A stretch of DNA of 64,000 nucleotides, from NCBI GenBank assembly GCA_038317055.1, contig JBBQBA010000002.1:6106-70105 (forward strand), written 5' to 3'. This document shows, piece by piece, positions 8,117-64,000 of this stretch. The notes under the pieces are model-generated. The model saw only the letters and a list, made by a program, of their open reading frames with translations, searched no databases and was not told where the DNA came from. Positions within the stretch are counted from its first letter, which is position 1. Each line of letters begins with the position of its first letter. The DNA is from Candidatus Saccharimonadales bacterium. Its GTDB lineage: Bacteria > Patescibacteriota > Saccharimonadia > Saccharimonadales > DATKHC01. The position numbers and the translations under genes are program-made.

Positions 8117-8794
8117 TTATAAGGAATTATATCCTGGAAAGTAATCCATTATAACCTGGTTATTACCATAATCCTTAGTTATGTCGTCTACTATACGTTC
8201 GACCATAATTTGAGGTCCAGAAATAAAAAACAAAGACAATGGACTAGCTCCATCTTGAAATTTATTGGCTACCCAATCACTACTTGGACTATTCTCAGTT
8301 GTGATAGGTTTGTAATCAAGTTTATAATACTTGAATATTTCTTCAAAAATAAAATCATAGTCATTCTTAACTATATAATTCAATGTTATTTCACGTTGCT
8401 CATTTTTATCGCTCAACCATTTGATAATACTCCGAACCGGCGTTATACCTATTCCGCCACTAATGAAAACTAATGGTATGGATTTATCTATAGGAAGCAC
8501 AAAATCACCAATTGGCTCAGACATTAATACTTCATCGCCAGCTTTTAGATTTATTAACCTGTCCTTAAATTGGCTTAGTGGTTTATTAAGTTTAGTAGTT
8601 ATCATTAAATGAGACTCGGAAGGTGATGATGACAATGTAAACCATCGATTATCGCCGATAGATGAGTTGTGTTCATCGGGGAATGTTAATTCTATATATT
8701 GACCAGCCAAATAATCAAATTCTGGTTCGGGTGTAAAATATAAACTTACAATATTTGGTGTTATAAATTCATTGTGAGAAAAAACTGATTTCAT
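8117..8794 (-). CDS. Ferredoxin-NADP reductase-like FAD/NAD(P)-binding oxidoreductase
   Basis: RWFTLSSSP (RxY[ST]-type FAD motif), the GDEV..PIGDF barrel end, and the FISGGIGITPVRSI NAD(P) motif. Confidence 0.75.
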   Translation of the reverse strand: MKSVFSHNEFITPNIVSLYFTPEPEFDYLAGQYIELTFPDEHNSSIGDNRWFTLSSSPSESHLMITTKLNKPLSQFKDRLINLKAGDEVLMSEPIGDFVLPIDKSIPLVFISGGIGITPVRSIIKWLSDKNEQREITLNYIVKNDYDFIFEEIFKYYKLDYKPITTENSPSSDWVANKFQDGASPLSLFFISGPQIMVERIVDDITKDYGNNQVIMDYFPGYNSL

Positions 8795-8800
8795 AAAAAA

Positions 8801-9487
8801 CTATTTAATATCATTTATCAGCTGTACAAGTTTTTGAGGGCTGTCTGTAGTAAGCTCTATATCTGGATAATATTTAAGATAATGTCTTGCAAGTCGCTCT
8901 GAATTAATGGAATAAAGTATAATTTTTAATTTCTCACGCTTAGCTGCTCGATATACATATTTATTCATACCAAGATAATGGATGTCGATACCCTGAAAGC
9001 CGTTTTTTTTGGCTGTTTTTATAGCGCTTAGCCCTCTAAATATCTCAACTAAATAACAATCAATGTTCATAGATAATTCACGAAATTTTTTTAATTCTTT
9101 TTCATTAAAAGATATAACCGTTGGTGGATTACTGAATCTAAATTTTTGAAGTTCTTTAGTTAGTAGTTTTGCCCAATTGCCGCCTTTACCTTCAATATAT
9201 AAAGGCATATCTCCAGCCGAAGAAATTATCTCAGCTAAAGTTGGTATTAATGCACCATTTTTAAGCTGTACTTTTCTTAACTCACTAAGATTTAGTGACT
9301 CAACTGGTTTATTAATTCCCGCTAGGCGTTTTAAATCGAAATCATGAAAGACCACTAATTTGCCGTCTTTTGATATGTGAATATCAACTTCAGCAGCAAT
9401 AACTTTTAAAGCCCTAGATTGCTCAATTGCTTCAATACTATTTTCCGGTGCTAATTTAGCACCTCCACGATGACTAATAATTTTCAT
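8801..9487 (-). CDS. Glycerophosphodiester phosphodiesterase family protein
   Basis: IISHRGG..APENSIEAI, EVDIHISKDGKLVVFHDFDLKR. Confidence 0.85.
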   Translation of the reverse strand: MKIISHRGGAKLAPENSIEAIEQSRALKVIAAEVDIHISKDGKLVVFHDFDLKRLAGINKPVESLNLSELRKVQLKNGALIPTLAEIISSAGDMPLYIEGKGGNWAKLLTKELQKFRFSNPPTVISFNEKELKKFRELSMNIDCYLVEIFRGLSAIKTAKKNGFQGIDIHYLGMNKYVYRAAKREKLKIILYSINSERLARHYLKYYPDIELTTDSPQKLVQLINDIK

Positions 9488-9551
9488 AAGTAACTAGGTT
9501 CTAGTGTACAATAATCTTGAAATAATATATCTGTAAATTTCGGAGATAAGA

Positions 9552-10085
9552 ATGCAAGATTACGAAAAATTATATAATTTTGGAGAAACTAACAGTTATA
9601 TATATACAATTTGTGAAATTCCTAAAGGTTCAAGCCATAAGGTTGAGTTTAATCGTGAGAAAAAACTTTTTGAGCTAGATCGAGTTGAACCAAATATCTT
9701 CGCTAAACCAGCAAGTTATGGTTTTATCCCACAAACAACGGACGAAGATAATGATCCTCTAGACACTTTAATTCTTACAGAAGAACCTGTACCAATAGGT
9801 GTAGTAGTAAAAGCTAAAGTTGTTGGCGTTCTAAATTTTGTAGATCAGGGTGAGAATGATCACAAGATTATTTGTGTACCCGAAGATGACCGAAACGAAG
9901 GCAGTACCATTAAAGACATTAATGATGTTAACGAGCAGTTAAAACAACAAATAGAACATCACTTTTCGCACTACAAAGACCTTAAGCGACCTGGTACTAC
10001 AGATGTACAAGGTTGGGGTGATGCTGCTGCAGCCTGGGTTGTAATTGCGGATTGTGTAAATCGATACAATCAAAATAAAACTTAG
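9552..10085 (+). CDS. ppa: Inorganic pyrophosphatase (family I)
   Basis: EIPKGS..K.E, YGFIPQT..EDNDPLD and DHKIICVP motifs. Confidence 0.9.
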   Translation: MQDYEKLYNFGETNSYIYTICEIPKGSSHKVEFNREKKLFELDRVEPNIFAKPASYGFIPQTTDEDNDPLDTLILTEEPVPIGVVVKAKVVGVLNFVDQGENDHKIICVPEDDRNEGSTIKDINDVNEQLKQQIEHHFSHYKDLKRPGTTDVQGWGDAAAAWVVIADCVNRYNQNKT

Positions 10086-10087
10086 TA

Positions 10088-10669
10088 ATGGATCGAATAC
10101 TACCGAAGGATGCAATATTAATTCCTGAATCTGCTAAAAGGGTTTTTAAAGGTGAGATTTTTGACGTTTACCAATGGGACCAAAAACTATATGACGGCAA
10201 TTTGGCTACTTTTGAAATGCTAAAAAGACCAGATACAGCAATAATTCTAGCCGTTAAAGATAACGAAATATTATACGTAAAAGATACTCAACCACCGAAT
10301 ACTATAAGAATTCAGCTACCTGGCGGAAGAGTTGATGCAGGAGAAACGTGGGAACAGGCTGCTAGGCGCGAACTTGTAGAAGAAACTGGTATGACTTTTA
10401 AGAATTGGCGTTTGATTGATGTAGTACAACCATTAGTAAAGATGGAATGGTTTGTTGCACTATATATTGCTTGGAATTTTGAATCTCAATCTAGAACTAA
10501 TTCAGGTCCAGGTGAAAAAATTGAAGTTAAATCTGGTCCAATTAAAAATGTGCTACAAGAACTTAAAGATAATGGCTCTGATTATTTGCCACAATCAGTA
10601 AAAGATGTTAAAGTAGTAGAAGAATTACTAAGCATTGAGGCATATAATGGAAAAACCCAAATCAAATGA
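10088..10669 (+). CDS. NUDIX hydrolase
   Basis: Nudix box LPGGRVDAGETWEQAARRELVEETG. Confidence 0.85.
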   Translation: MDRILPKDAILIPESAKRVFKGEIFDVYQWDQKLYDGNLATFEMLKRPDTAIILAVKDNEILYVKDTQPPNTIRIQLPGGRVDAGETWEQAARRELVEETGMTFKNWRLIDVVQPLVKMEWFVALYIAWNFESQSRTNSGPGEKIEVKSGPIKNVLQELKDNGSDYLPQSVKDVKVVEELLSIEAYNGKTQIK

Positions 10670-10910
10670 GTTACCAAAAGTATCTTTAGATTCATTGTTC
10701 CTTTTAACACAAGATGAAAAAAGTACAATTTTTAAGCTTGCGTCATTAAATGCTATTGAATTAACATCCGATATCGTTAATCCACAACCTGCAATTAATG
10801 AACTTGCTGAGACCGGACAACATATTTTTGATGCCGATAAACTACATCCTATTGATCCAACCTTATTAAGAGACGCAAAATTAGCAGAAGAAATCCAAAG
10901 AGAATCGTAA
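10647..10910 (+). CDS. Hypothetical small protein
   Basis: An ORF with no recognisable motif. The start is uncertain (10635 or 10647), and it overlaps the NUDIX stop. Confidence 0.4.
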   Translation: MEKPKSNELPKVSLDSLFLLTQDEKSTIFKLASLNAIELTSDIVNPQPAINELAETGQHIFDADKLHPIDPTLLRDAKLAEEIQRES

Positions 10911-34025: not shown

Positions 34026-35627
34026 ATGACCGAGAATCTTAGACAGGACGATGAAGCTAATACTCTACGACGAGCAAGAATATTAGGACTACAGTATGTC
34101 GATACCTCCAAAATTGAAAACAAGCAAATCAACAGAGATCTATTATCTGTCGGTGATCTTTATCAGTTACGTGTCACTCCGATAACCTTTGATGCGCACA
34201 ATATACTGTTTGGTATTACTAATACAACTTCATCGAATACACTCTCACATATAAAACAAAATTTTCCAGACTATAACGTGACTTTCGCGCTAATTTCTGA
34301 TCCTGGATATAAAGATTACATGCGTCTATACGATCCACCTAAAGAAGTTGTGTACCATGACATAACCATAAATAAGACAAACGTTGCCGAACAGGTAAGT
34401 TCTATATCTAGTATTTTAGAGCAGGTGAAGGCTGATGACATTTTAGCTTATCTCGTTGAGCAAGCTCATAAGTTAAATGCTTCAGATATACATGTCGAAA
34501 CTGAACAGGGTTCAGCCAGAGTTAGACTTCGAATAGATGGGGTACTTCACCCGGTAGCACAACTAAACATGGATAAGTACAGAACCCTAATTGGTGCTAT
34601 AGCAAATGCTGGAAATATTTCTACTTCATCTGATGAAGCCCAACAAGGACATATTACACAGATAGTAAAAATGGCAAATGGTTCTGAAGTAAATATAAAT
34701 ATAAGACTTGAGAGCACTCCGACGATTAACGGAATGGACGTAGTAATGCGTTTATTTAATATGGACGCGAAAATGTTTACATTAGATCGACTTGGACTTT
34801 CAGCAACCGAGCGAGCAGTGGTCGATGACATTATTAAAAAGCCTAGCGGTCTAGTTTTAGTAGTCGGTCCAACTGGTTCTGGTAAGACCACTACACTCTA
34901 TTCAATCCTAAATACCCTATCTAGTCCTGAAAGAAAAATTATAACCATAGAAGACCCAGTTGAATTTCAATTTCCGGGAGTTACCCAAATATCCGTAAAA
35001 TCTTCTAATAGTGTAGAAACCAACTTTGCTGAAAAATTACGAGCAGTACTAAGATTAGACCCTGACATAGTTATGGTGGGTGAGATTAGAGATAATGATA
35101 CAGCTAAGACCGCATTACAGGCAGCTCTAACGGGTCATTTAGTTTTATCTACTTTCCATGCCTCATCAGCTTCAGCGGCTCTCACAAGGTTACTTGATAT
35201 TATTGGTGAGAATCCACTTTTTATTTCTTCAATACGTTTGGTTATGGCTCAAAGATTAATCAGGAGGTTGGATGATAGTCTTAAGGTTGCATATATCCCA
35301 AACGAAAAAGAGTTGAGTTTAATTAGGGAAGTAGTAGATAGTTTGCCGTCAACTGTTCCAAAACCTAGTCTTGAAAATATACAAATATATAAGCAAGGAG
35401 CATCGACTGAAAATCCATATGGTTTTAAAGGGCAATTGGCAATTAGGGAACAATTTTTAATGTCAGGCGAAATATTAAAATTACTCCAAACAACAAAAGT
35501 ATCAACTACCCAACAAATCGAACAAGCCGCCGTTAACAGTGGAATGTTAACGATGCTGCAAGACGGAATTTTAAAAGTTCTTGCGGGTGACACTACTCTT
35601 GAAGAAATATTTAGAGTAGTAGGTTAA
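34026..35627 (+). CDS. GspE/PilB-type secretion/pilus assembly ATPase (Cys-less variant)
   Basis: An N-terminal T2SSE_N-like region, Walker A GPTGSGKTTT, Walker B DPDIVMVGEIRD, and His box GHLVLSTFHA. Confidence 0.85.
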   Translation: MTENLRQDDEANTLRRARILGLQYVDTSKIENKQINRDLLSVGDLYQLRVTPITFDAHNILFGITNTTSSNTLSHIKQNFPDYNVTFALISDPGYKDYMRLYDPPKEVVYHDITINKTNVAEQVSSISSILEQVKADDILAYLVEQAHKLNASDIHVETEQGSARVRLRIDGVLHPVAQLNMDKYRTLIGAIANAGNISTSSDEAQQGHITQIVKMANGSEVNINIRLESTPTINGMDVVMRLFNMDAKMFTLDRLGLSATERAVVDDIIKKPSGLVLVVGPTGSGKTTTLYSILNTLSSPERKIITIEDPVEFQFPGVTQISVKSSNSVETNFAEKLRAVLRLDPDIVMVGEIRDNDTAKTALQAALTGHLVLSTFHASSASAALTRLLDIIGENPLFISSIRLVMAQRLIRRLDDSLKVAYIPNEKELSLIREVVDSLPSTVPKPSLENIQIYKQGASTENPYGFKGQLAIREQFLMSGEILKLLQTTKVSTTQQIEQAAVNSGMLTMLQDGILKVLAGDTTLEEIFRVVG

Positions 35628-56278: not shown

Positions 56279-56767
56279 TTAATCTCTAAACACTAATTTC
56301 GTAAGAAATCCTGGCTTTCGATTAATTGGAAGTACAAGGATAGAATTAATATGTGCAAAATTGGCACCTATCGAATCATTGATAATTCTATCTCCGACCA
56401 TAGCAATGTGAGTAGGTTCAGTATCGGCAAATTTAATAATTTTTCTATAGTAACTACTTAGTGGTTTAAATGAAAATATAGTTGGGCGGATGACTTGGGT
56501 ATTGAAATGTTTGGTAATAGAATCGAGGTTTCGTCTCGAATTACTTCCAATAATGATTCTTATACCTGATTTATCTATTTTATTTAAGTGAATAATATAA
56601 TCTTTAGATAAAGTTGATTTTCGTTTAGGTACTAGTGTTTCGTCTATATCAAAAACAATGTGTGTTATACCAAGTTTAAATAGATCACTTGGTTTAATTT
56701 CTAAAACTGATGAAACGACGTAATTTGGATAAAATATCGATGATTTGTTAATTTTTCTCATGCTCAC
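56279..56767 (-). CDS. YqeG-family HAD-IIIA phosphatase
   Basis: IVFDIDETLVP (DxDxT), GSNS, MVGDRIINDS. Confidence 0.8.
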   Translation of the reverse strand: MSMRKINKSSIFYPNYVVSSVLEIKPSDLFKLGITHIVFDIDETLVPKRKSTLSKDYIIHLNKIDKSGIRIIIGSNSRRNLDSITKHFNTQVIRPTIFSFKPLSSYYRKIIKFADTEPTHIAMVGDRIINDSIGANFAHINSILVLPINRKPGFLTKLVFRD

Positions 56768-56882
56768 CTAATAATAACCTAGACAATAATATATGTTAAC
56801 GGAACTAAAATTATGAAGTTAAGAATTGTAAATCAATGATTACGGCCACTACATACAGATTAGTCTATACTTATGAATACAA

Positions 56883-58925
56883 ATGGATTTATCGGACAAA
56901 CTTACAGTATTATCTGGAATTGGCGAGGTAGTTGCGCGTAATTTTGCAACACTTGGTATAAATAATATTGAAGAACTACTTACGTATTTCCCTAGGAAAT
57001 ATAATGATTTTTCGCATGTTGTACCAATTAATAAAACGAAACCAGGTCCAGTCACTATCAAAGCAAAGATAACAAATGCAAGAAGTAGACGAGCACGTCA
57101 TGGTCTAAATATTACCGAGGGTATTGCTAGCGATGAAACAGGTAGTATTTACCTCGTTTGGTTTAATCAACCATATCGGGCCTCTAGTGTTAAAGAAGAT
57201 GCAGAATATTATATATCCGGTGAGTTTGGTTTGCACCATAAACGAATGAGTATGATAAATCCATCTGTTGAAATGGTAAGTAGTTTTCCGATTAATACAG
57301 CTCGAATTGTACCGGTATATAAAGAAACAAAAGGATTAAGTTCACTTCAGATAAGACGAGCAATCAAACCAGCTTTAGCATACCTAAGGCTTATTAATGA
57401 AAGTTTACCTAAATGGATGTTAGATGAATATAAATTAATGCCAGTTATACAGTCGATAGAAACTATGCATTTCCCGATATCAAATGAAGAATTATATGAA
57501 GCAAAACACCGAATTGCCTTTGAGGAAGTATTTGACTTAAGTTTAGCTGCCCTTATGAACAAAAATGAACTACTAAGTGAAAAAGCTCTTAGCATTAAGT
57601 TTAGCGAAAAATTAGCTAAGCAGTTTGTTAATAATCTTCCATTTAAACTAACTTCTGAGCAAAAAATAGTCGCTTGGCAAATTCTCCAAGATATTGAAAA
57701 AACGGTCCCAATGAATCGTCTACTTGAAGGAGATGTAGGTACTGGCAAAACAGTCGTAGCGACAATGGCTGCACATATGACTATGAACGAAGACCTACAG
57801 GTAGCTCTTATGGCTCCGACTGAGCTTCTTGCTCGACAACATGCCGACACTATTCATAAGATCTTAAAACCATTTAAATTAGACCACAAGGTTGGATTAT
57901 TAATAGGTAGTCATAAATTTGCTCAAAAAACTCAAGTTATTGAAAAACTAAATAGCGGTGAAATAGGTTTTATAATTGGTACACATAGTTTAATCCAAGA
58001 AAAAGTAAGTTTAAAAAAACTCGGACTAATTGTAATTGATGAACAACATCGGTTCGGTGTTAAACAGCGCCAAGCTTTAATGCTGAAAGCTGGGCATATG
58101 CCACATTTACTTTCTATGACCGCTACACCTATACCCAGATCGCTCCAGCTTACACTTTATGGTGACCTAGACATATCTGTAATAAGAAAAAAACCTTATA
58201 CCGACCTGGCGGTAAAAACCAAAATAATAACTCTTAACAAAAGAACAGAACTATATGAAAGCCTTATAAATATACTCAAGATTAAAAAACAGATATTTAT
58301 TGTATGCCCACTTATTTCTGATTCCGACAATATGCCTTTTCGATCTACCGAAAAAGTATTTAATGAACTTTCTAAGGGAGTATATAAAGATTTTAATGTA
58401 GGAATATTACACAGCAAATTAAAAACTGAAGATAAAGAGAAAGTCATGAAAGACTTTGTTGCACGCAAGATAGATGTCCTCGTGGCTACTACTATTATTG
58501 AAGTTGGTGTAAACATACCTAATGCTAGTGTAATGATTATTGAAAGTGCGGAGAGATTTGGTCTTGCTCAAGCCCATCAACTCAGGGGTAGAGTAGGACG
58601 AAATCATGAACAAGGCTATTGTTATTTGCTTCTTGACGACAATAATCAACCAAGTAGTCGACTCCGAGCACTCGAAACAACATCTGACGGATTTAAACTT
58701 GCTGAACTAGACTTAAAAATTAGAGGTCCAGGGGTAATTTACGGGGTTACACAGCACGGGCATGATGGCTTAGATCTAAAAGTAGCAAAATTAACTGACC
58801 AAGATTTAATAATCGAAGCTAGACGAGCGGCGACTGAGTTTATAGACAAAAAAGAAAATTTGTTACAATATGTACAGCTTAATAAAAGAGTAGAACGAAT
58901 AAGATCAGTTACTAACCTGAATTAA
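56883..58925 (+). CDS. recG: ATP-dependent DNA helicase RecG
   Basis: Wedge/OB domain, LPFKLTSEQ, GDVGTGKT, DEQHRFGV, MTATPIPRS, QLRGRVGR. Confidence 0.95.
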   Translation: MDLSDKLTVLSGIGEVVARNFATLGINNIEELLTYFPRKYNDFSHVVPINKTKPGPVTIKAKITNARSRRARHGLNITEGIASDETGSIYLVWFNQPYRASSVKEDAEYYISGEFGLHHKRMSMINPSVEMVSSFPINTARIVPVYKETKGLSSLQIRRAIKPALAYLRLINESLPKWMLDEYKLMPVIQSIETMHFPISNEELYEAKHRIAFEEVFDLSLAALMNKNELLSEKALSIKFSEKLAKQFVNNLPFKLTSEQKIVAWQILQDIEKTVPMNRLLEGDVGTGKTVVATMAAHMTMNEDLQVALMAPTELLARQHADTIHKILKPFKLDHKVGLLIGSHKFAQKTQVIEKLNSGEIGFIIGTHSLIQEKVSLKKLGLIVIDEQHRFGVKQRQALMLKAGHMPHLLSMTATPIPRSLQLTLYGDLDISVIRKKPYTDLAVKTKIITLNKRTELYESLINILKIKKQIFIVCPLISDSDNMPFRSTEKVFNELSKGVYKDFNVGILHSKLKTEDKEKVMKDFVARKIDVLVATTIIEVGVNIPNASVMIIESAERFGLAQAHQLRGRVGRNHEQGYCYLLLDDNNQPSSRLRALETTSDGFKLAELDLKIRGPGVIYGVTQHGHDGLDLKVAKLTDQDLIIEARRAATEFIDKKENLLQYVQLNKRVERIRSVTNLN

Positions 58926-58950
58926 ATACTCTAATATTATTCAAACTAAA

Positions 58951-59775
58951 ATGTATTCCGGAACAACCCTAACCCGCTTTTCTGGCAAAGTTATAGGTAC
59001 TCACCAGAAAATTGATCGAATTGCGAGAAAACAGCTCGCGATCTTGGTTAAAAATCGCGATATTTTTCCTGGTGTTACAAAGATATTAAATTTTGAGGGC
59101 AAGAATGGTCCGGATGCAATTAAGCGTAAGAGTCCAGCTAGAGATGAGCCATGGCACTATTACAGCCCATTTGACGATGAGGACTCTAGATTAATAGAGT
59201 TAATCAACGAACATTATAAAAACCTAGTTAATGAGCTTAGAAATAAGAATGACGAACGTATAGCTTTTGAAGCAGCTTGGCTTGCTCATGCCATGGTAGA
59301 TGGTTTGACTCCAGCTCATCACTATCCCTATGAACAAAAATTAGTTGAAATTAACGGAGGTGAAGGACTCGAGTCTCGGGATACAATTAGAAAAAAATGG
59401 ATACCAAAAGGTCCTACCCCTGGTGGAACTGTAAAAAATACCTGGAAGATGTGGGGACCTAAGGGGTTGATAAGTACACATAGTTACTTTGAATTTGGAG
59501 TTGCAATTTTGCTTGCGCCTCTGTCGGTTGAAGCTGCCGATATATCACCAGCAGAAATTAAAAATCTTCAAGAAAAAGGGATTATAGAAGTATTTAAGAA
59601 TACAGCGCGAGAAATAGCAGTATTAGACATTTACCACAATTATATTAGACGTGGATGGACCCCTAGATCGGCATATATTATCCGTCAAAAGCTATATCCA
59701 GCACTTGTAAAAACCGTTACTCTAGCTTGGTTTAGTGCTCTAATTGACGCAGAGATTGTTAAAGTTAAGAAATGA
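58951..59775 (+). CDS. Hypothetical protein with a zinc-dependent phospholipase C / P1-nuclease-like H-x3-D-x3-P-x-H motif
   Basis: AWLAHAMVDGLTPAHH has the same spacing as the HYxxDxxxPxH metal-binding motif of the PLC/S1-P1 superfamily. Nothing else was recognised. Confidence 0.45.
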   Translation: MYSGTTLTRFSGKVIGTHQKIDRIARKQLAILVKNRDIFPGVTKILNFEGKNGPDAIKRKSPARDEPWHYYSPFDDEDSRLIELINEHYKNLVNELRNKNDERIAFEAAWLAHAMVDGLTPAHHYPYEQKLVEINGGEGLESRDTIRKKWIPKGPTPGGTVKNTWKMWGPKGLISTHSYFEFGVAILLAPLSVEAADISPAEIKNLQEKGIIEVFKNTAREIAVLDIYHNYIRRGWTPRSAYIIRQKLYPALVKTVTLAWFSALIDAEIVKVKK

Positions 59776-60299
59776 GGATTATAGCTGGCAGTTTGGGGGG
59801 TAGAAACTTTGCTTCAACTGCTAAGGCTACTCATCCGATGAGTGAGAAAATGCGTGGAGCAATTTTTAGCTCACTTGGAGACATTGATGGACTAAGTTTT
59901 TTAGACGTTTGTTCAGGCTCGGGTGCAATTAGCTTTGAGGCTATCAGTAGAGGCGCAAAAAGTGTAGTGGCAATTGAATCAAATAAAAAAGCCCAGGGCG
60001 ATATATCGCTAAATATTAAGAAGTTAGACCTTGGTGACAAAATTAAACTAATTAGTGCAAATTTCTACTCTTGGCAACAATATAACTACGATAAATTCAA
60101 CATAGTAATTATAGATCCTCCCTATAATGATTCTCAGCTTTACCAAATAGCTTATCTTGAAACTAAGCTAGAAACAGATGGCATATTGATATTATCTTTG
60201 CCGCCAGACTCAGATTTACCGGAGTTTAATAATTTGAAATTATTGTCTGAAAAAGAATATGGTGATAGTAAGCTAGTTTTTTATAAGAATACTCTGTAA
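59772..60299 (+). CDS. rsmD: 16S rRNA (guanine966-N2)-methyltransferase RsmD
   Basis: RIIAGSLGGRNF, LDVCSGSGAISFEAISRGA, IIDPPY. ATGA overlaps the upstream gene. Confidence 0.85.
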   Translation: MRIIAGSLGGRNFASTAKATHPMSEKMRGAIFSSLGDIDGLSFLDVCSGSGAISFEAISRGAKSVVAIESNKKAQGDISLNIKKLDLGDKIKLISANFYSWQQYNYDKFNIVIIDPPYNDSQLYQIAYLETKLETDGILILSLPPDSDLPEFNNLKLLSEKEYGDSKLVFYKNTL

Positions 60300-60311
60300 A
60301 ATAGTTGCATT

Positions 60312-60397
60312 GGGCGAGTGGTGGAATTGGTAGACACGCATGCCTTAGGAGCATGTGCCGCAAGGTGTGAAGGTTCAAGTCCTTTCTCGCCCACCAA
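60312..60397 (+). tRNA. tRNA-Leu (anticodon UAG), CCA encoded
   Basis: The acceptor stem pairs GGGCGAG with CTCGCCC. The anticodon stem pairs CATGC with GCATG around the loop CTTAGGA (anticodon 60346-60348). There is a long variable arm, and the T-arm is GAAGG-TTCAAGT-CCTTT. The discriminator is A, followed by CCA. Confidence 0.9.
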
Positions 60398-60531
60398 TTA
60401 GAATATTAATATATGTAGTAATTTAAGATAATTATTTAATTTTACTTCGTAAATTAGCAAACCGTTTATGATATAATTTGGATTAATGATATTAGTTTAC
60501 TCTATGGGTAAATTAGAGGTTAAATAAAAAT

Positions 60532-63141
60532 ATGGTTGCACAGAGACTACCCACAACTGGCGGTGATAAAGGTAATTGGGGTAACATACTCAATGGCTTT
60601 CTTCTGCAATCTCATAATGCCGACGGAACTCTTCAGACTGGAGCAATAAGCCAAGCTAGTGGAATAGTTAAATCTCAAGTAGGATCATCTAATGGAGTAG
60701 CCGGACTTAATGCTTCGGGTACAGTTCCAACAACACAACTAGGTGCCGGTGCTGGTAGTACATCAAACTATTTAAGAGGCGATGGTACATGGGTAGTACC
60801 AAGTGGTGCTGGATCTACTGGAGCAACTGGTCCCTTAGGAGCAACTGGAGCAACTGGTGCAGGAATAACAGGAGCAACCGGACCTACAGGAATAGCTGGA
60901 TCTACTGGAGCAACTGGTCCCTTAGGAGCTACTGGAGCTCAAGGTACAACGGGCGCTACCGGCGCTGGAACAACCGGAGCTACAGGACCGAATGGATCTG
61001 CGGGTTCGACGGGTGCTACCGGCGCAGGAACTACTGGTGCTACTGGTTCAGTTGGTGCTACTGGGCCAGGAGGCGGTGCTACAGGGCCTATAGGATTTAC
61101 CGGAGCAACAGGTCCAATCGGAAATGATGGCGCTACAGGAGCTGGTACTACAGGAGCTACCGGACCTTCAGGAATAGCTGGTACAACTGGATCCACCGGT
61201 CCAGCTGGAGCTGGAACAACCGGAGCAACTGGGCCAAATGGTTCTACAGGAGCTACTGGACCTTCAGGAATAGCTGGTACAACTGGATCCACCGGTCCAG
61301 CTGGAGCTGGAACAACTGGAGCAACTGGACCAATAGGTGCAACTGGTCCTATCGGGTCTTCGGGGCCCACTGGAGCAACTGGTCCAGTAGACATTAAACT
61401 AAGTAACACTATTGGTGTATTAGGAGATTCGATTTCATCTAACTGTTGTTACCAATCAGGTGCATTAATGACCAGTTATGGTTATCTTACATGGGCACTT
61501 TGTATGGCGGGTGGGCATGCTCCAACTCTAAAATTTTTAGATGGAATTGCAGGCACTAGTAGTCTCAATTCAAACTGGCCGCAAAGAGTTTCAAGTATGA
61601 TCACAGCAAATCCTACAACTTGTATTGTGGAAATCGGTACTAACGATTGCGTGAATTCTCAACTTAGCGGAACTGTATCAACTGCAGTAGACCAAATTAT
61701 TAATGGTACAGGTCTAACCACTGGTTGTGGTATAAACCAAACAATCACTTCGCTCACAGCTGCTGGAATACAGGTAATTCTTAATACCATTCCTCCTCGG
61801 AATGCTCTCACAAACTCCCAACAACAAATCCATGACCAAGTAAATGCGTGGATACGTCAGCAAGATACGAGACCTGGTATTACAATATGCGACGCTGCAG
61901 CAGTACTTACTGATGTATCGATAGGAGTTTATACTAATTACAAACAGACATATGTTGGTACAACCACAGGCTTATCGGCTGGAACTATAACGACAATACC
62001 ACTAACTGGAACGACACCAAATACGATTGCTAAAGGGAAGATTATTATGGTGGGAAGTGGTGGGACTGCGCAGTATTTTTCTACATCTTCCTCAACTGCT
62101 GCAGCTGCTTCGTCTATTTCAGTTACCTCAGCGACTGCTTCAGTTGTCTCATCTGGCACTATTGTCACCGTCTCAGAATATACAAATGATGGTATACATC
62201 CGAATAACGCAGGTGCACAAGCGTGGGGAACTGCGCTCGCAACTATTTTCACTCAATTGTTTCCATCTGGCTCACTTGCAAGTACTTACGCTGATTCATT
62301 CAACCTCCTACCACAGACGACAGCATCCTGGGTACAGTTCGGCGGTACTGTACTTAATCCTGGAACAGGTGGATTTCCAAATGGTGGACTACCCGCAACA
62401 GCCCCACTTTGGTTGGCAGCACCTGCTGGTGTAAGTCTCGCATATATTCCCAGAACGGACGGAGTTCCTGGTAGTGCAATGAGAATTACAGTCGGATCGG
62501 GGAAATCTGGTACACTTGCGTTGTATTCAAAGTCACGAACTGTGGGTTCTGATTATACCGGTAAATCACTTACCACATTCCTTGAAATACTTTCAGTTAC
62601 AGGTACTGACGCTAACTTTAATGGTACTACCCCTGAAGGTCTTACTAGCTATATTAATGTTCAAGTTCCCGATTACTCTCAGGGCTATACGGGACTTGTT
62701 TTAGGTAACAATGATCCATACGTAATGCCTTCTTCCCCGATTATTATTCAGTCTCCACTTTATCTTCCGTCCGCTATTGCTTCTACATCAGTTGCCTATA
62801 CTACTGCTGGAGGACCATACACCACAATCTCAATAGGTGCATTTAAAACGTCTGTACCTCTCACAAACGGTCAAGTCCTCCTTCTTAGTAATGTTGGTAA
62901 TAACGCAGGTACTTATGTGACCGTGAACGGAAACCAATCAGCAGGTATAAGTACGATTAATGTTCAATCATTCACACCACTAATAAATATCGCCAGTGGT
63001 ATAACACTCTCCTATACAACACCACAGAAAATACCAGCGTGCGACTCATATGCAACGCCGACAGACGTATATATTACTATTAGCTTTAATGGGGGCGGTG
63101 TATACACATTTGGTAGAGTAGGAATTATACCTGTACAGTAA
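60532..63141 (+). CDS. Tail-fibre-like surface protein: conserved N-terminal module, interrupted collagen-like Gly-X-Y region, SGNH/GDSL hydrolase domain, beta-rich C-terminal domain
   Basis: The N-terminus has [11 protein letters not shown]...HNADGTL and [12 protein letters not shown], as in phage tail-fibre/minor-tail proteins. Residues 94-286 are GXT/GPX triplets. The SGNH blocks are IGVLGDSIS (I), EIGTNDC (III) and [13 protein letters not shown] (V). About 300 C-terminal residues have no recognisable match. Confidence 0.8.
60805..61389 (+). repeat. Coding triplet repeat (Gly-X-Y) with an internal 96-nt duplication
   Basis: GGNGCNACNGGN periodicity. 61150-61232 and 61246-61328 are 81/83 identical (period 96 nt, or 32 aa). 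The repeat opens spurious ORFs in other frames and on the minus strand. Confidence 0.85.
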
Positions 63142-63235: not shown

Positions 63236-64000
63236 TTAGAATGTACTGTAGTACTGGGTCTTTGTTGATTGACAGATTGATTGCAGAGAAGTATCAAGTG
63301 ATAGACATAGAATAGTGGCTTGTTTGTCACTGTGATAATAAGATACAAAGTCCTTTACAGCCCCAACAACGCAATTAGATTGTGCGTCAAAGTTTTGACC
63401 TAACATACAGGACGTTCTGGTTTGATCAACATTACTGCTACTATTTCCGGAAGCATCCCTCCCTAGACTCTGATAACAGGTGTCAACAAATTCAGAATCG
63501 ACAACACTACATTCTGTAAATACCTGAGAGAAATTATCACTTGCTACACGTAAGGCATGAGAAGTTTGCATTAAATAACATTGATTTTTATATTTAACGT
63601 CAACGGATGTACAGGGGAACATTGGATCACTAGCTTTAAAGAATGCAGTGTGATGATCGGGATTAACCTCATCCATTTCGTTCTCCATAAATACTCCACC
63701 ATAACATGATTGTCTCTCCCAATCATCGGTGAGTAAATCACAAGTTGAAAGCGAAACATACAGCTTACTGTCAGTTACGTCCATAATTCCATGTCCAATG
63801 CCGTGAACACAGTTATAGTGATAAAAGGAATATGGTTTAGATTTTTTAATACTTGCACAAATTGTTGGAATCTTAGCGTCAAGGTTTTTCGCACCGATTT
63901 TTGTAACTATAGACTCCATTACTCCATGGTAATAGCCCGACCAGCAAAAATTATCACCTTGTGAATATGCTATATCGACATTATTAACTTTGTCAGCCTC
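63236..64000 (-). CDS. Cysteine-repeat protein, hypothetical, 5' end outside window
   Basis: The frame stays open upstream of the listed ATG (63919) to the window edge (...EADKVNNVDIAYSQGDNFCWSGYYHGVMES...). It contains six paired-Cys units of the type C-x12-17-C[YVW].G (for example TCDLLTDDWERQSCYGG, ECSVVDSEFVDTCYQS) plus one further upstream motif C (FCWSG) whose partner, if any, lies outside the window. Confidence 0.6.
   Translation of the reverse strand, partial: EADKVNNVDIAYSQGDNFCWSGYYHGVMESIVTKIGAKNLDAKIPTICASIKKSKPYSFYHYNCVHGIGHGIMDVTDSKLYVSLSTCDLLTDDWERQSCYGGVFMENEMDEVNPDHHTAFFKASDPMFPCTSVDVKYKNQCYLMQTSHALRVASDNFSQVFTECSVVDSEFVDTCYQSLGRDASGNSSSNVDQTRTSCMLGQNFDAQSNCVVGAVKDFVSYYHSDKQATILCLSLDTSLQSICQSTKTQYYSTF

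Follow-up and report, generated by a model that had tools for sequence, protein, structure and literature searches.

Why would the chromosome of a soil Saccharibacterium, a member of the Candidate Phyla Radiation (CPR), carry one intact phage-style tail-fibre gene directly after a tRNA-Leu gene, with no other phage genes around it? The question is raised by a stretch of 64,000 nt from a Candidatus Saccharimonadales genome (assembly GCA_038317055.1, contig JBBQBA010000002.1, positions 6,106 to 70,105; hereafter the window), which encodes close to its right end an 869-aa protein that combines a collagen-like stalk with an SGNH esterase. To our knowledge, Saccharibacteria and other CPR bacteria have yielded very few descriptions of phage-related genes. 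Prophages are known from Patescibacteria (10.1101/2024.03.08.584096), and we found no published report of a solitary fibre gene or of a collagen-like fibre in Saccharibacteria. The gene is of a known type, a phage SGNH-esterase fibre, in an unusual setting, standing alone in a CPR chromosome. On balance, we consider it probable that this is a solitary phage-type receptor-binding fibre gene, either the remnant of, or captured from, a phage or integrative element that used the tRNA-Leu(TAG) site. The features of the locus are as follows.

60312-60396, forward strand: tRNA-Leu, anticodon TAG (ARAGORN); the sole tRNA in the 64-kb window
60397-60531, forward strand: AT-rich intergenic region of 135 nt, read from the sequence
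60532-63141, forward strand: fibre gene, a complete 869-aa open reading frame (ORF) starting with ATG and encoding a phage-type collagen-stalk esterase fibre (ORF listing)
60532-60810, forward strand: N-terminal module, residues 1-93 (homolog alignment)
60811-61389, forward strand: collagen-like stalk, residues 94-286 (Pfam Collagen, triplet analysis)
61390-62262, forward strand: SGNH/GDSL esterase domain, residues 287-577 (Pfam PF13472, conserved columns, AlphaFold2, Foldseek)
62263-63138, forward strand: C-terminal family domain, residues 578-869 (HMMER, alignments A1, A3 and A5, AlphaFold2, Foldseek against the viral structure set BFVD)

A preliminary description of this DNA had divided the 869-aa protein into four parts, and the ORF listing, Pfam and triplet analysis bear this architecture out. 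The esterase domain was matched by Pfam Lipase_GDSL_2 (PF13472) over residues 296-461 (E 5.7e-15, 56.7 bits, cut-off 32.9), and the SGNH segment scored E 3e-16 against the lipase family phrog_6102. The catalytic blocks are complete, blocks I, III and V as already described, with S300 (GDS), G341, N371 (GTND) and D553/H556 (DGIHPN); in an alignment of 69 family members, each of the five residues occupies a column with at least 90% conservation. The description requires one correction: an insert of ~75 aa (residues ~464-537, nt 61921-62142), modelled with low confidence, splits the SGNH fold after the block III region and ahead of block V. In a Foldseek search against the PDB the SGNH core was the only part matched, with acetyl-xylan esterases (Axe2), sialate O-acetylesterase and TesA as its counterparts (TM-score normalized to the target 0.5-0.7).

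The remainder of the protein, about 300 aa in which no match had initially been recognized, proved to be a conserved domain when HMMER, alignments, AlphaFold2 and Foldseek were applied. The window protein aligns here with the C-terminal domain of a small phage family, so that this region of ~290 aa is a family domain, a conserved beta-sandwich that follows the SGNH domain and carries the motif IPRTDGVPG in the window protein. By sequence it has no Pfam or PDB counterpart. It contains an insert of its own of ~95 aa (residues ~748-843, nt 62773-63060), common only to the two relatives P0001 and P0002. AlphaFold2 run with a 69-sequence alignment gave a predicted TM-score of 0.72; confidence was good for the SGNH core and for the C-terminal beta-sandwich, but not for either insert. 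Prediction from the single sequence was uninformative (predicted local distance difference test 32). An origin of the two inserts by internal duplication was considered and dismissed (local alignment z = 1.8; 28 of 500 shuffles score as high).

Together the SGNH and C-terminal domains, which form the head of the protein, define one rare family. An exhaustive HMMER search of 1.84 billion representatives recovered 68 proteins, most of them 380-730 aa long and consisting of an SGNH domain followed by a C-terminal domain of ~180 aa with the motifs ARTDG.PG.WQQ, GVLRTP and G.GT...GR..I.KV. The relative P0001 (1382 aa, ERZ27300174 k141_30562) is 32% identical to the window protein over 554 aa (E 6e-45) and 38% identical over the C-terminal domain (E 4e-33); this protein and the fragment P0002 were the only ones found with both inserts and the full head. 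Structural comparison against viral predicted structures (BFVD) aligned both domains with esterases of the Gordonia phages Lambo and Clown, Rhodococcus phage ReqiPine5 (gp21) and Microbacterium phage Shocker (E 4e-21 to 4e-15), and further matches included Pseudomonas phage GDSL lipases, several annotated tail fibres and, at rank 35, the Possum tail spike. Other searches with the head added nothing. A word-indexed protein search with the single sequence or with alignment A2 returned no relatives, probably since T/S/G-rich words flood the set of at most 8000 candidates; pattern scans of IMG/VR with alignments A1, A2 and A5 had no usable conserved stretch or gave no confirmed match; and a scan of JGI metagenomes revealed no close relative.

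The genomic contexts of this head family are phage structural modules in each of the six cases examined:

P0007: between Phage_capsid_3 and NlpC/P60, with integrases nearby
P0009: adjoins Gp80, terminase and portal genes
P0003: downstream of an endolysin gene of the GH25-LysM type
P0012: preceded by portal and structural genes
P0016: preceded by tail tube, tape measure and four genes of minor-tail size
P0001: itself a tailspike-like fusion with a pectate-lyase-type beta-helix that matches tail-spike PHROGs; neighbours show weak tail-fibre matches

In isolated phages the homolog is located within or next to the tail and lysis modules. In Gordonia phage Belphegor, gp23 is flanked by the genes for the major tail protein and the head-to-tail adaptor; in Arthrobacter phage Hum25, gp26 comes after tail genes, endolysin and holin and before an O-acetyltransferase and an integrase. 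The actinophage two-domain esterases (Lambo gp5, Clown, ReqiPine5 gp21, Shocker, Hum25 gp26, Belphegor gp23; P0003-P0068) share with the window protein the SGNH domain, the C-terminal beta-sandwich and the motifs ARTDG.PG and G.GT...GR..I.KV (HMMER E down to 4e-32), but differ in that they stand alone, at 380-730 aa, with no collagen stalk and neither of the two inserts, and have their genes in the tail or lysis regions of phages. P0001 differs in another way: its beta-helix replaces the N-terminal module and collagen, and its gene stands in a tight same-strand block with tail-fibre-like neighbours.

A separate observation concerns Hum25, where the esterase gene adjoins and is convergent to the O-acetyltransferase gene (gp26-gp27, L157:6872-10111), with a tyrosine integrase close by. 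This pairing suggests that virion deacetylation and lysogenic-conversion acetylation act on one surface glycan.

At the other end of the protein, the N-terminal module consists of a head motif followed by a fibre unit of ~35 aa (residues 57-90, nt 60700-60801) that includes NYLRGDGTW. Two Streptomyces phage proteins, BRock gp186 and LuckySocke gp41, begin with sequence that matches residues 2-38 (51-59% identity, E 5e-5) and share the head motif RLP...W..ILN.FLL..HN.DGTL. Both genes (L016:5794-6741 and L017:4995-6392) are situated inside tRNA arrays of ~113-kb phages, outside the tail modules. For BRock gp186 the start given in the annotation falls within a tRNA-Lys gene, and the Met of MTRLPIP is probably the true start. 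The fibre unit was found at more than 100 IMG/VR loci (40-74% identity) in ORFs of 200-1950 aa, often internal or repeated, and it co-occurs with collagen in 12 of 80 IMG/VR ORFs. In the viral protein L126, FLRGDGSW passes directly into collagen, the same junction as in the window protein. Matches of the N-terminal module to PHROGs are weak (E 1e-4 to 5e-6), and all of those with an assigned function fall in the tail category; no match was found in the PDB.

Five homologs of the whole module (P0075-P0079, 51-64% identical) begin at the same position as the window protein. In P0078 the module runs on into Gly-X-Y repeats, and in P0079 (locus L074) it is followed, through frameshifts in a long-read contig, by classic fibre motifs and a beta-helix. 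P0075 (locus L075; GCA_035508755.1, DATJMK010000038.1) sits on a contig that ends where collagen would begin. The early view of a phage-fibre-like protein is strengthened here, as the N-terminal motifs match viral fibre proteins and the head family is phage-borne in all six contexts.

Two of these homologous loci deserve separate mention. At L074 (positions 8291-10700 of ERZ25039482 contig_68977) the frameshifts in the module-headed gene are probably long-read errors, and its surroundings have a GC content of 0.57 and include a type I restriction-modification system, Lsr2 and a DUF4082 protein. At L075 (7308-8361) the homolog, 63% identical over the N-terminal module, starts ~690 nt past a tRNA-Leu(CAA) gene, from which a NUDIX gene separates it, a second case of this module just after a tRNA-Leu gene.

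Between the N-terminal module and the head lies the stalk, in which 60 Gly-X-Y triplets are arranged in eight runs of 5-11 triplets separated by seven register breaks of 1-2 residues (TT, IT or T). Pfam Collagen (PF01391) was matched with E 6e-16 (58.3 bits, cut-off 27.2). Thr prevails at the Y position (31 of 63 counted), and Ala or Pro at X. At the standard 0.286 nm per residue, the stalk would form a rod of ~55 nm. It contains a tandem 96-nt duplication (61143-61238 and 61239-61334, 95% identical) coding for a 32-aa unit and its copy, which suggests a recent repeat expansion and possible stalk-length polymorphism.

Gly-X-Y stalks are common in phage fibres. The collagen-like phage fibre or minor tail PHROGs 6320, 5073, 1806 and 30509 have a stalk like that of the window protein; matches to them are driven by the repeat and are silent on the descent of the whole protein. 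The whole protein scores E ~1e-25 against the "tail fiber" PHROGs 6320 and 5073. These scores stem from the collagen repeat, because the SGNH segment alone misses both PHROGs and a collagen-only viral protein matches them; for the same reason, the notion that the two PHROGs represent a collagen and SGNH fusion family was dropped. The phage link is due instead to the N-terminal motif and the esterase head and not to strong PHROG scores. Outside the repeat, every part of the protein points by homology towards phage fibres or tails.

As to position, the preliminary description rightly placed the gene just after the tRNA-Leu gene; the spacer, given there as 134 nt, measures 135 nt (60397-60531). 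The tRNA-Leu(TAG) gene is the last element of a conserved RecG / PLPC-like / RsmD / tRNA block and borders a variable region. The same block, including tRNA-Leu(TAG), is kept in the related metagenome-assembled genome JAZKJC010000002.1 (L002), where (L002:13502-16462) a 513-aa large serine recombinase (Resolvase and Recombinase domains) on the opposite strand overlaps the 3' end of the tRNA gene and is followed by a Replic_Relax gene and then by unrelated cargo. This insertion looks like an integrative element at the orthologous site; no attR copy was detected within the 8.4 kb at hand. Conserved synteny stops exactly at tRNA-Leu(TAG) and a recombinase element occupies the site in the relative, which indicates that the site takes up mobile DNA in this lineage. 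The suspected role of tRNA-Leu as an integration hotspot is thereby substantiated by the serine recombinase and Replic_Relax at the orthologous tRNA, and tRNA-Leu(TAG) is a genuine variable hotspot.

An independent assembly touches the same boundary. The Logan contig SRR19962015_2229387 (L001) is 100% identical to positions 56501-60339 of the window and breaks 28 nt into the tRNA-Leu gene. Such a break right where the island begins suggests that the assembly graph branches here through strain variation or a repeat; it is compatible with heterogeneity of the site and not proof of it. In exact look-ups, RsmD was present only on this 3.8-kb contig ending inside tRNA-Leu, and neither the fibre protein nor the downstream protein matched any record.

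To the right, the fibre gene is bounded by the following feature.

63236-64000, reverse strand, running off the window: conserved Cys-rich host gene, convergent to the fibre gene, its frame open to base 64000

As this frame runs off the window end, the listed ORF of 227 aa is a minimum. Its family comprises 56 homologs (39-80% identity) on soil and rhizosphere metagenome contigs. A full-length homolog (L018:9665-10765) is a Cys-rich protein of 366 aa with an N-terminal transmembrane helix, encoded among ordinary chromosomal genes. Over 10 kb around the homolog, none of the 56 loci has a fibre, RsmD or RecG homolog, no tRNA-Leu was near the homologs in the 10 loci scanned for tRNAs, and the protein itself has no Pfam or PHROG match. 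With a conserved block on the left and a host gene with different usual neighbours on the right, the fibre gene is a single-gene island of ~2.8 kb; the island holds only one ORF, as its intergenic regions, 135 and 94 nt long, leave no room for another gene.

RecG encoded in the window has its top relatives (55-58% identical) in Patescibacteria and Saccharibacteria metagenome-assembled genomes. Twenty large ORFs across the 60 kb upstream were scanned against Pfam, and they are housekeeping genes or have no Pfam match. RecG, RsmD, TyrRS, RadA and a PBP1-type transglycosylase lie near the fibre gene, and DnaE, PepN, ClpB, UvrB, BipA, PheT and a type IV pilus ATPase farther upstream. Sheath, tube, baseplate, capsid and terminase genes were not found among the scanned window ORFs, and the 869-aa protein has no paralog in the 64-kb window. 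A T2SSE-family ATPase, of a type IV pilus or of type II secretion, is encoded at 34026-35627; it is relevant since Saccharibacteria are documented to attach by means of type IV pili.

The AT-rich spacer contains an extended -10-like element, TGATATAAT (60469-60477), as a putative promoter element, and a Shine-Dalgarno-like AGAGG (60515-60519) precedes the ATG by 12 nt. A consensus promoter scan did not list the -10-like element, because a -35 match is absent. Going by these sequence features, both elements may act in expression of the fibre gene. The GC content at third codon positions (GC3) is 0.24, compared with 0.227 +/- 0.032 in the other 46 window ORFs. Total GC of the fibre gene is 0.40-0.57, against ~0.36 for the genome, and it is Gly, Ala, Thr and Pro codons that raise it, through their first two positions (GC12 0.57). 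Raised GC was considered as a sign of foreign origin and dismissed, given that GC3 equals that of host genes.

If three fibre chains associate, as we propose, the N-terminal ~93 aa with their viral-type fibre unit would form the proximal or attachment end, and the 60 Gly-X-Y triplets a triple-helical rod of ~55 nm, made flexible at its seven register breaks. At the distal end, the SGNH domain, whose Ser-Gly-Asn-His/Asp set is intact, would then strip O-acetyl groups, or acyl groups like them, from a glycan of the cell surface, and the C-terminal beta-sandwich and the two inserts might lend binding specificity or trimer stability. Trimerization, substrate, virion association and the route by which the gene arrived are predictions; the analysis itself establishes the domain architecture, conserved catalytic residues, relatives residing in phages, a neighbourhood free of phage genes, flanking host genes, native codon usage and a missing export signal. 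No signal peptide, transmembrane segment, LPXTG or other export or anchor signal was found in the fibre protein (maximum Kyte-Doolittle 19-residue mean 1.39), in agreement with the early remark on the missing N-terminal signal peptide, and this absence is as expected of a virion protein.

Fibre-plus-esterase as the design of deacetylating tail fibres, invoked from the outset for this protein, is documented. SGNH-esterase deacetylating tail fibres or spikes are known from Pectobacterium phage Possum, Acinetobacter phage Aristophanes and the receptor-binding enzymes of Klebsiella temperate phages (PMC9569702, PMC8471582, PMC13123978). Like the window protein, these combine an elongated fibre with a distal SGNH domain that has complete Ser/Gly/Asn/His residues, and both are expected to take O-acetyl groups off surface polysaccharide. 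Sequence relationship is detectable only in the SGNH fold, and the window protein is unlike them in its collagen-like stalk, its two inserts, its family-specific beta-sandwich and the location of its gene outside a phage genome.

Several observations weigh against a remnant of, or capture from, a phage or element at this site. In agreement with the preliminary description, Pfam and repeat searches of the window disclosed no integrase, no phage genes and no duplicate of the tRNA 3' end. More precisely, no integrase or recombinase gene is present in the fibre island or elsewhere in the window, and no other phage gene was found in Pfam scans of the neighbours and large upstream ORFs; without neighbouring phage genes, the phage or element origin of this copy is inferred from homology and position only. 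No direct repeat of the tRNA 3' end (attL/attR) exists in the window when up to 7 mismatches per 30 nt are allowed; the best exact matches are only 9-11 nt long, and one 13/16 match falls inside the host gene. Relatives in the SGNH family are only 24-39% identical to the window protein, and the PHROG 6320 and 5073 "tail fiber" scores are collagen-driven and uninformative. No recognizable phage genes stand beside the N-terminal-module homologs L074, L075 and L076 in the visible flanks. The composition of the fibre gene gives no evidence for recent foreign origin; a phage of this host is expected to match host GC3 anyway. Finally, the genome is streamlined and AT-rich, and in it a fully intact ORF whose catalytic residues are conserved fits functional retention as well as a recent relic.

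The alternative that survives best, in our view unlikely as it stands, is domestication: the epibiont would express a phage-derived fibre to bind or de-acetylate the envelope of its host bacterium, or to remodel its own surface. The full-length ORF is consistent with it: the N-terminus aligns from its first residues with P0075-P0079, the C-terminus ends as in the family, and the catalytic set is intact. So are native codon usage, a plausible private promoter and Shine-Dalgarno element, the bracketing of a single gene by host genes, and the N-terminal-module homologs at L074, L075 and L076 that likewise have no recognizable phage genes nearby. Cultured Saccharibacteria parasitize Actinobacteria (PMC11880426), and the closest relatives of the head in structure and sequence are from actinobacterial phages, on contigs with GC 0.56-0.61; yet actinophages are heavily over-sampled in phage databases, which may explain this link. 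A domesticated surface protein is also at odds with the lack of any signal peptide, transmembrane segment, LPXTG or other export or anchor signal, and the documented attachment of Saccharibacteria proceeds via type IV pili (PMC11880426). The gene does not behave as a core gene with a Sec signal shared by all relatives: a word-indexed protein search, JGI metagenomes and 56 + 5 related loci provided no ortholog of the fibre in any relative, and there is accordingly no evidence of long-term retention. A more specific version, in which the epibiont uses the swappable N-terminal module, the ~55-nm rod and the actinophage-type esterase head on the envelope of an actinobacterial host, as that host's phages do, is distinctly unlikely; at L074-L076, loci of no phage-like appearance, the module stands ahead of other distal domains, and at L075 it lies near a tRNA-Leu.

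Lower still we rank the proposal that a prophage, tailocin or contractile-injection element continues beyond base 64000 and that the fibre gene is its outermost part. The window stops 860 nt past the fibre gene, and the Logan assembly break inside tRNA-Leu is consistent with strain variation or a repeat. But the next gene downstream is convergent, lacks a PHROG match and belongs to a conserved chromosomal family linked to fibre or phage genes in none of 56 loci, and a host gene between the fibre gene and a remaining virion module would be atypical. None of the 20 scanned upstream ORFs encodes sheath, tube, baseplate, capsid or terminase. The tailocin or larger element entertained in the preliminary description is therefore very unlikely, with a conserved host gene downstream and housekeeping genes over the 60 kb upstream.

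The least probable explanation, which we judge highly improbable, sees in the fibre a cellular protein without phage ancestry, a collagen-like surface or exosporium-type protein in the style of Scl, Lcl or BclA that happens to carry an esterase: Scl1/Scl2, Lcl and BclA do present a globular distal domain on a Gly-X-Y triple-helix stalk, the collagen repeat matches the NCBIfam adhesins Lcl, SclB and SclA (E 1e-9 to 3e-15) as well as BclA in the PDB, its Thr-rich Y positions resemble BclA-type repeats and the context is chromosomal, but the NCBIfam scores of 38-56 bits are confined to the repeat and far below cut-offs of 325-500, the protein has no signal peptide, LPXTG or cell-wall anchor, and its flanking domains are phage-related, since more than 100 viral contigs carry the N-terminal unit and all six contexts of the head family are phage modules.

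A solitary phage-type fibre gene, left by or taken from an element at tRNA-Leu(TAG), thus remains our preferred reading, and its meaning depends on what became of it. If it is a relic, it would be a molecular fossil of a phage infecting this lineage, and would offer a handle on such phages and on their receptor chemistry. Host recognition by Saccharibacteria and other CPR epibionts is only partly understood; if the gene has been kept for function, it would represent a phage receptor-binding protein repurposed for inter-bacterial parasitism. In either case, this is the first description of a small family in which an SGNH esterase is joined to an unnamed C-terminal beta-sandwich, a second domain with no Pfam or PDB representative, and this family appears to be virion-associated.

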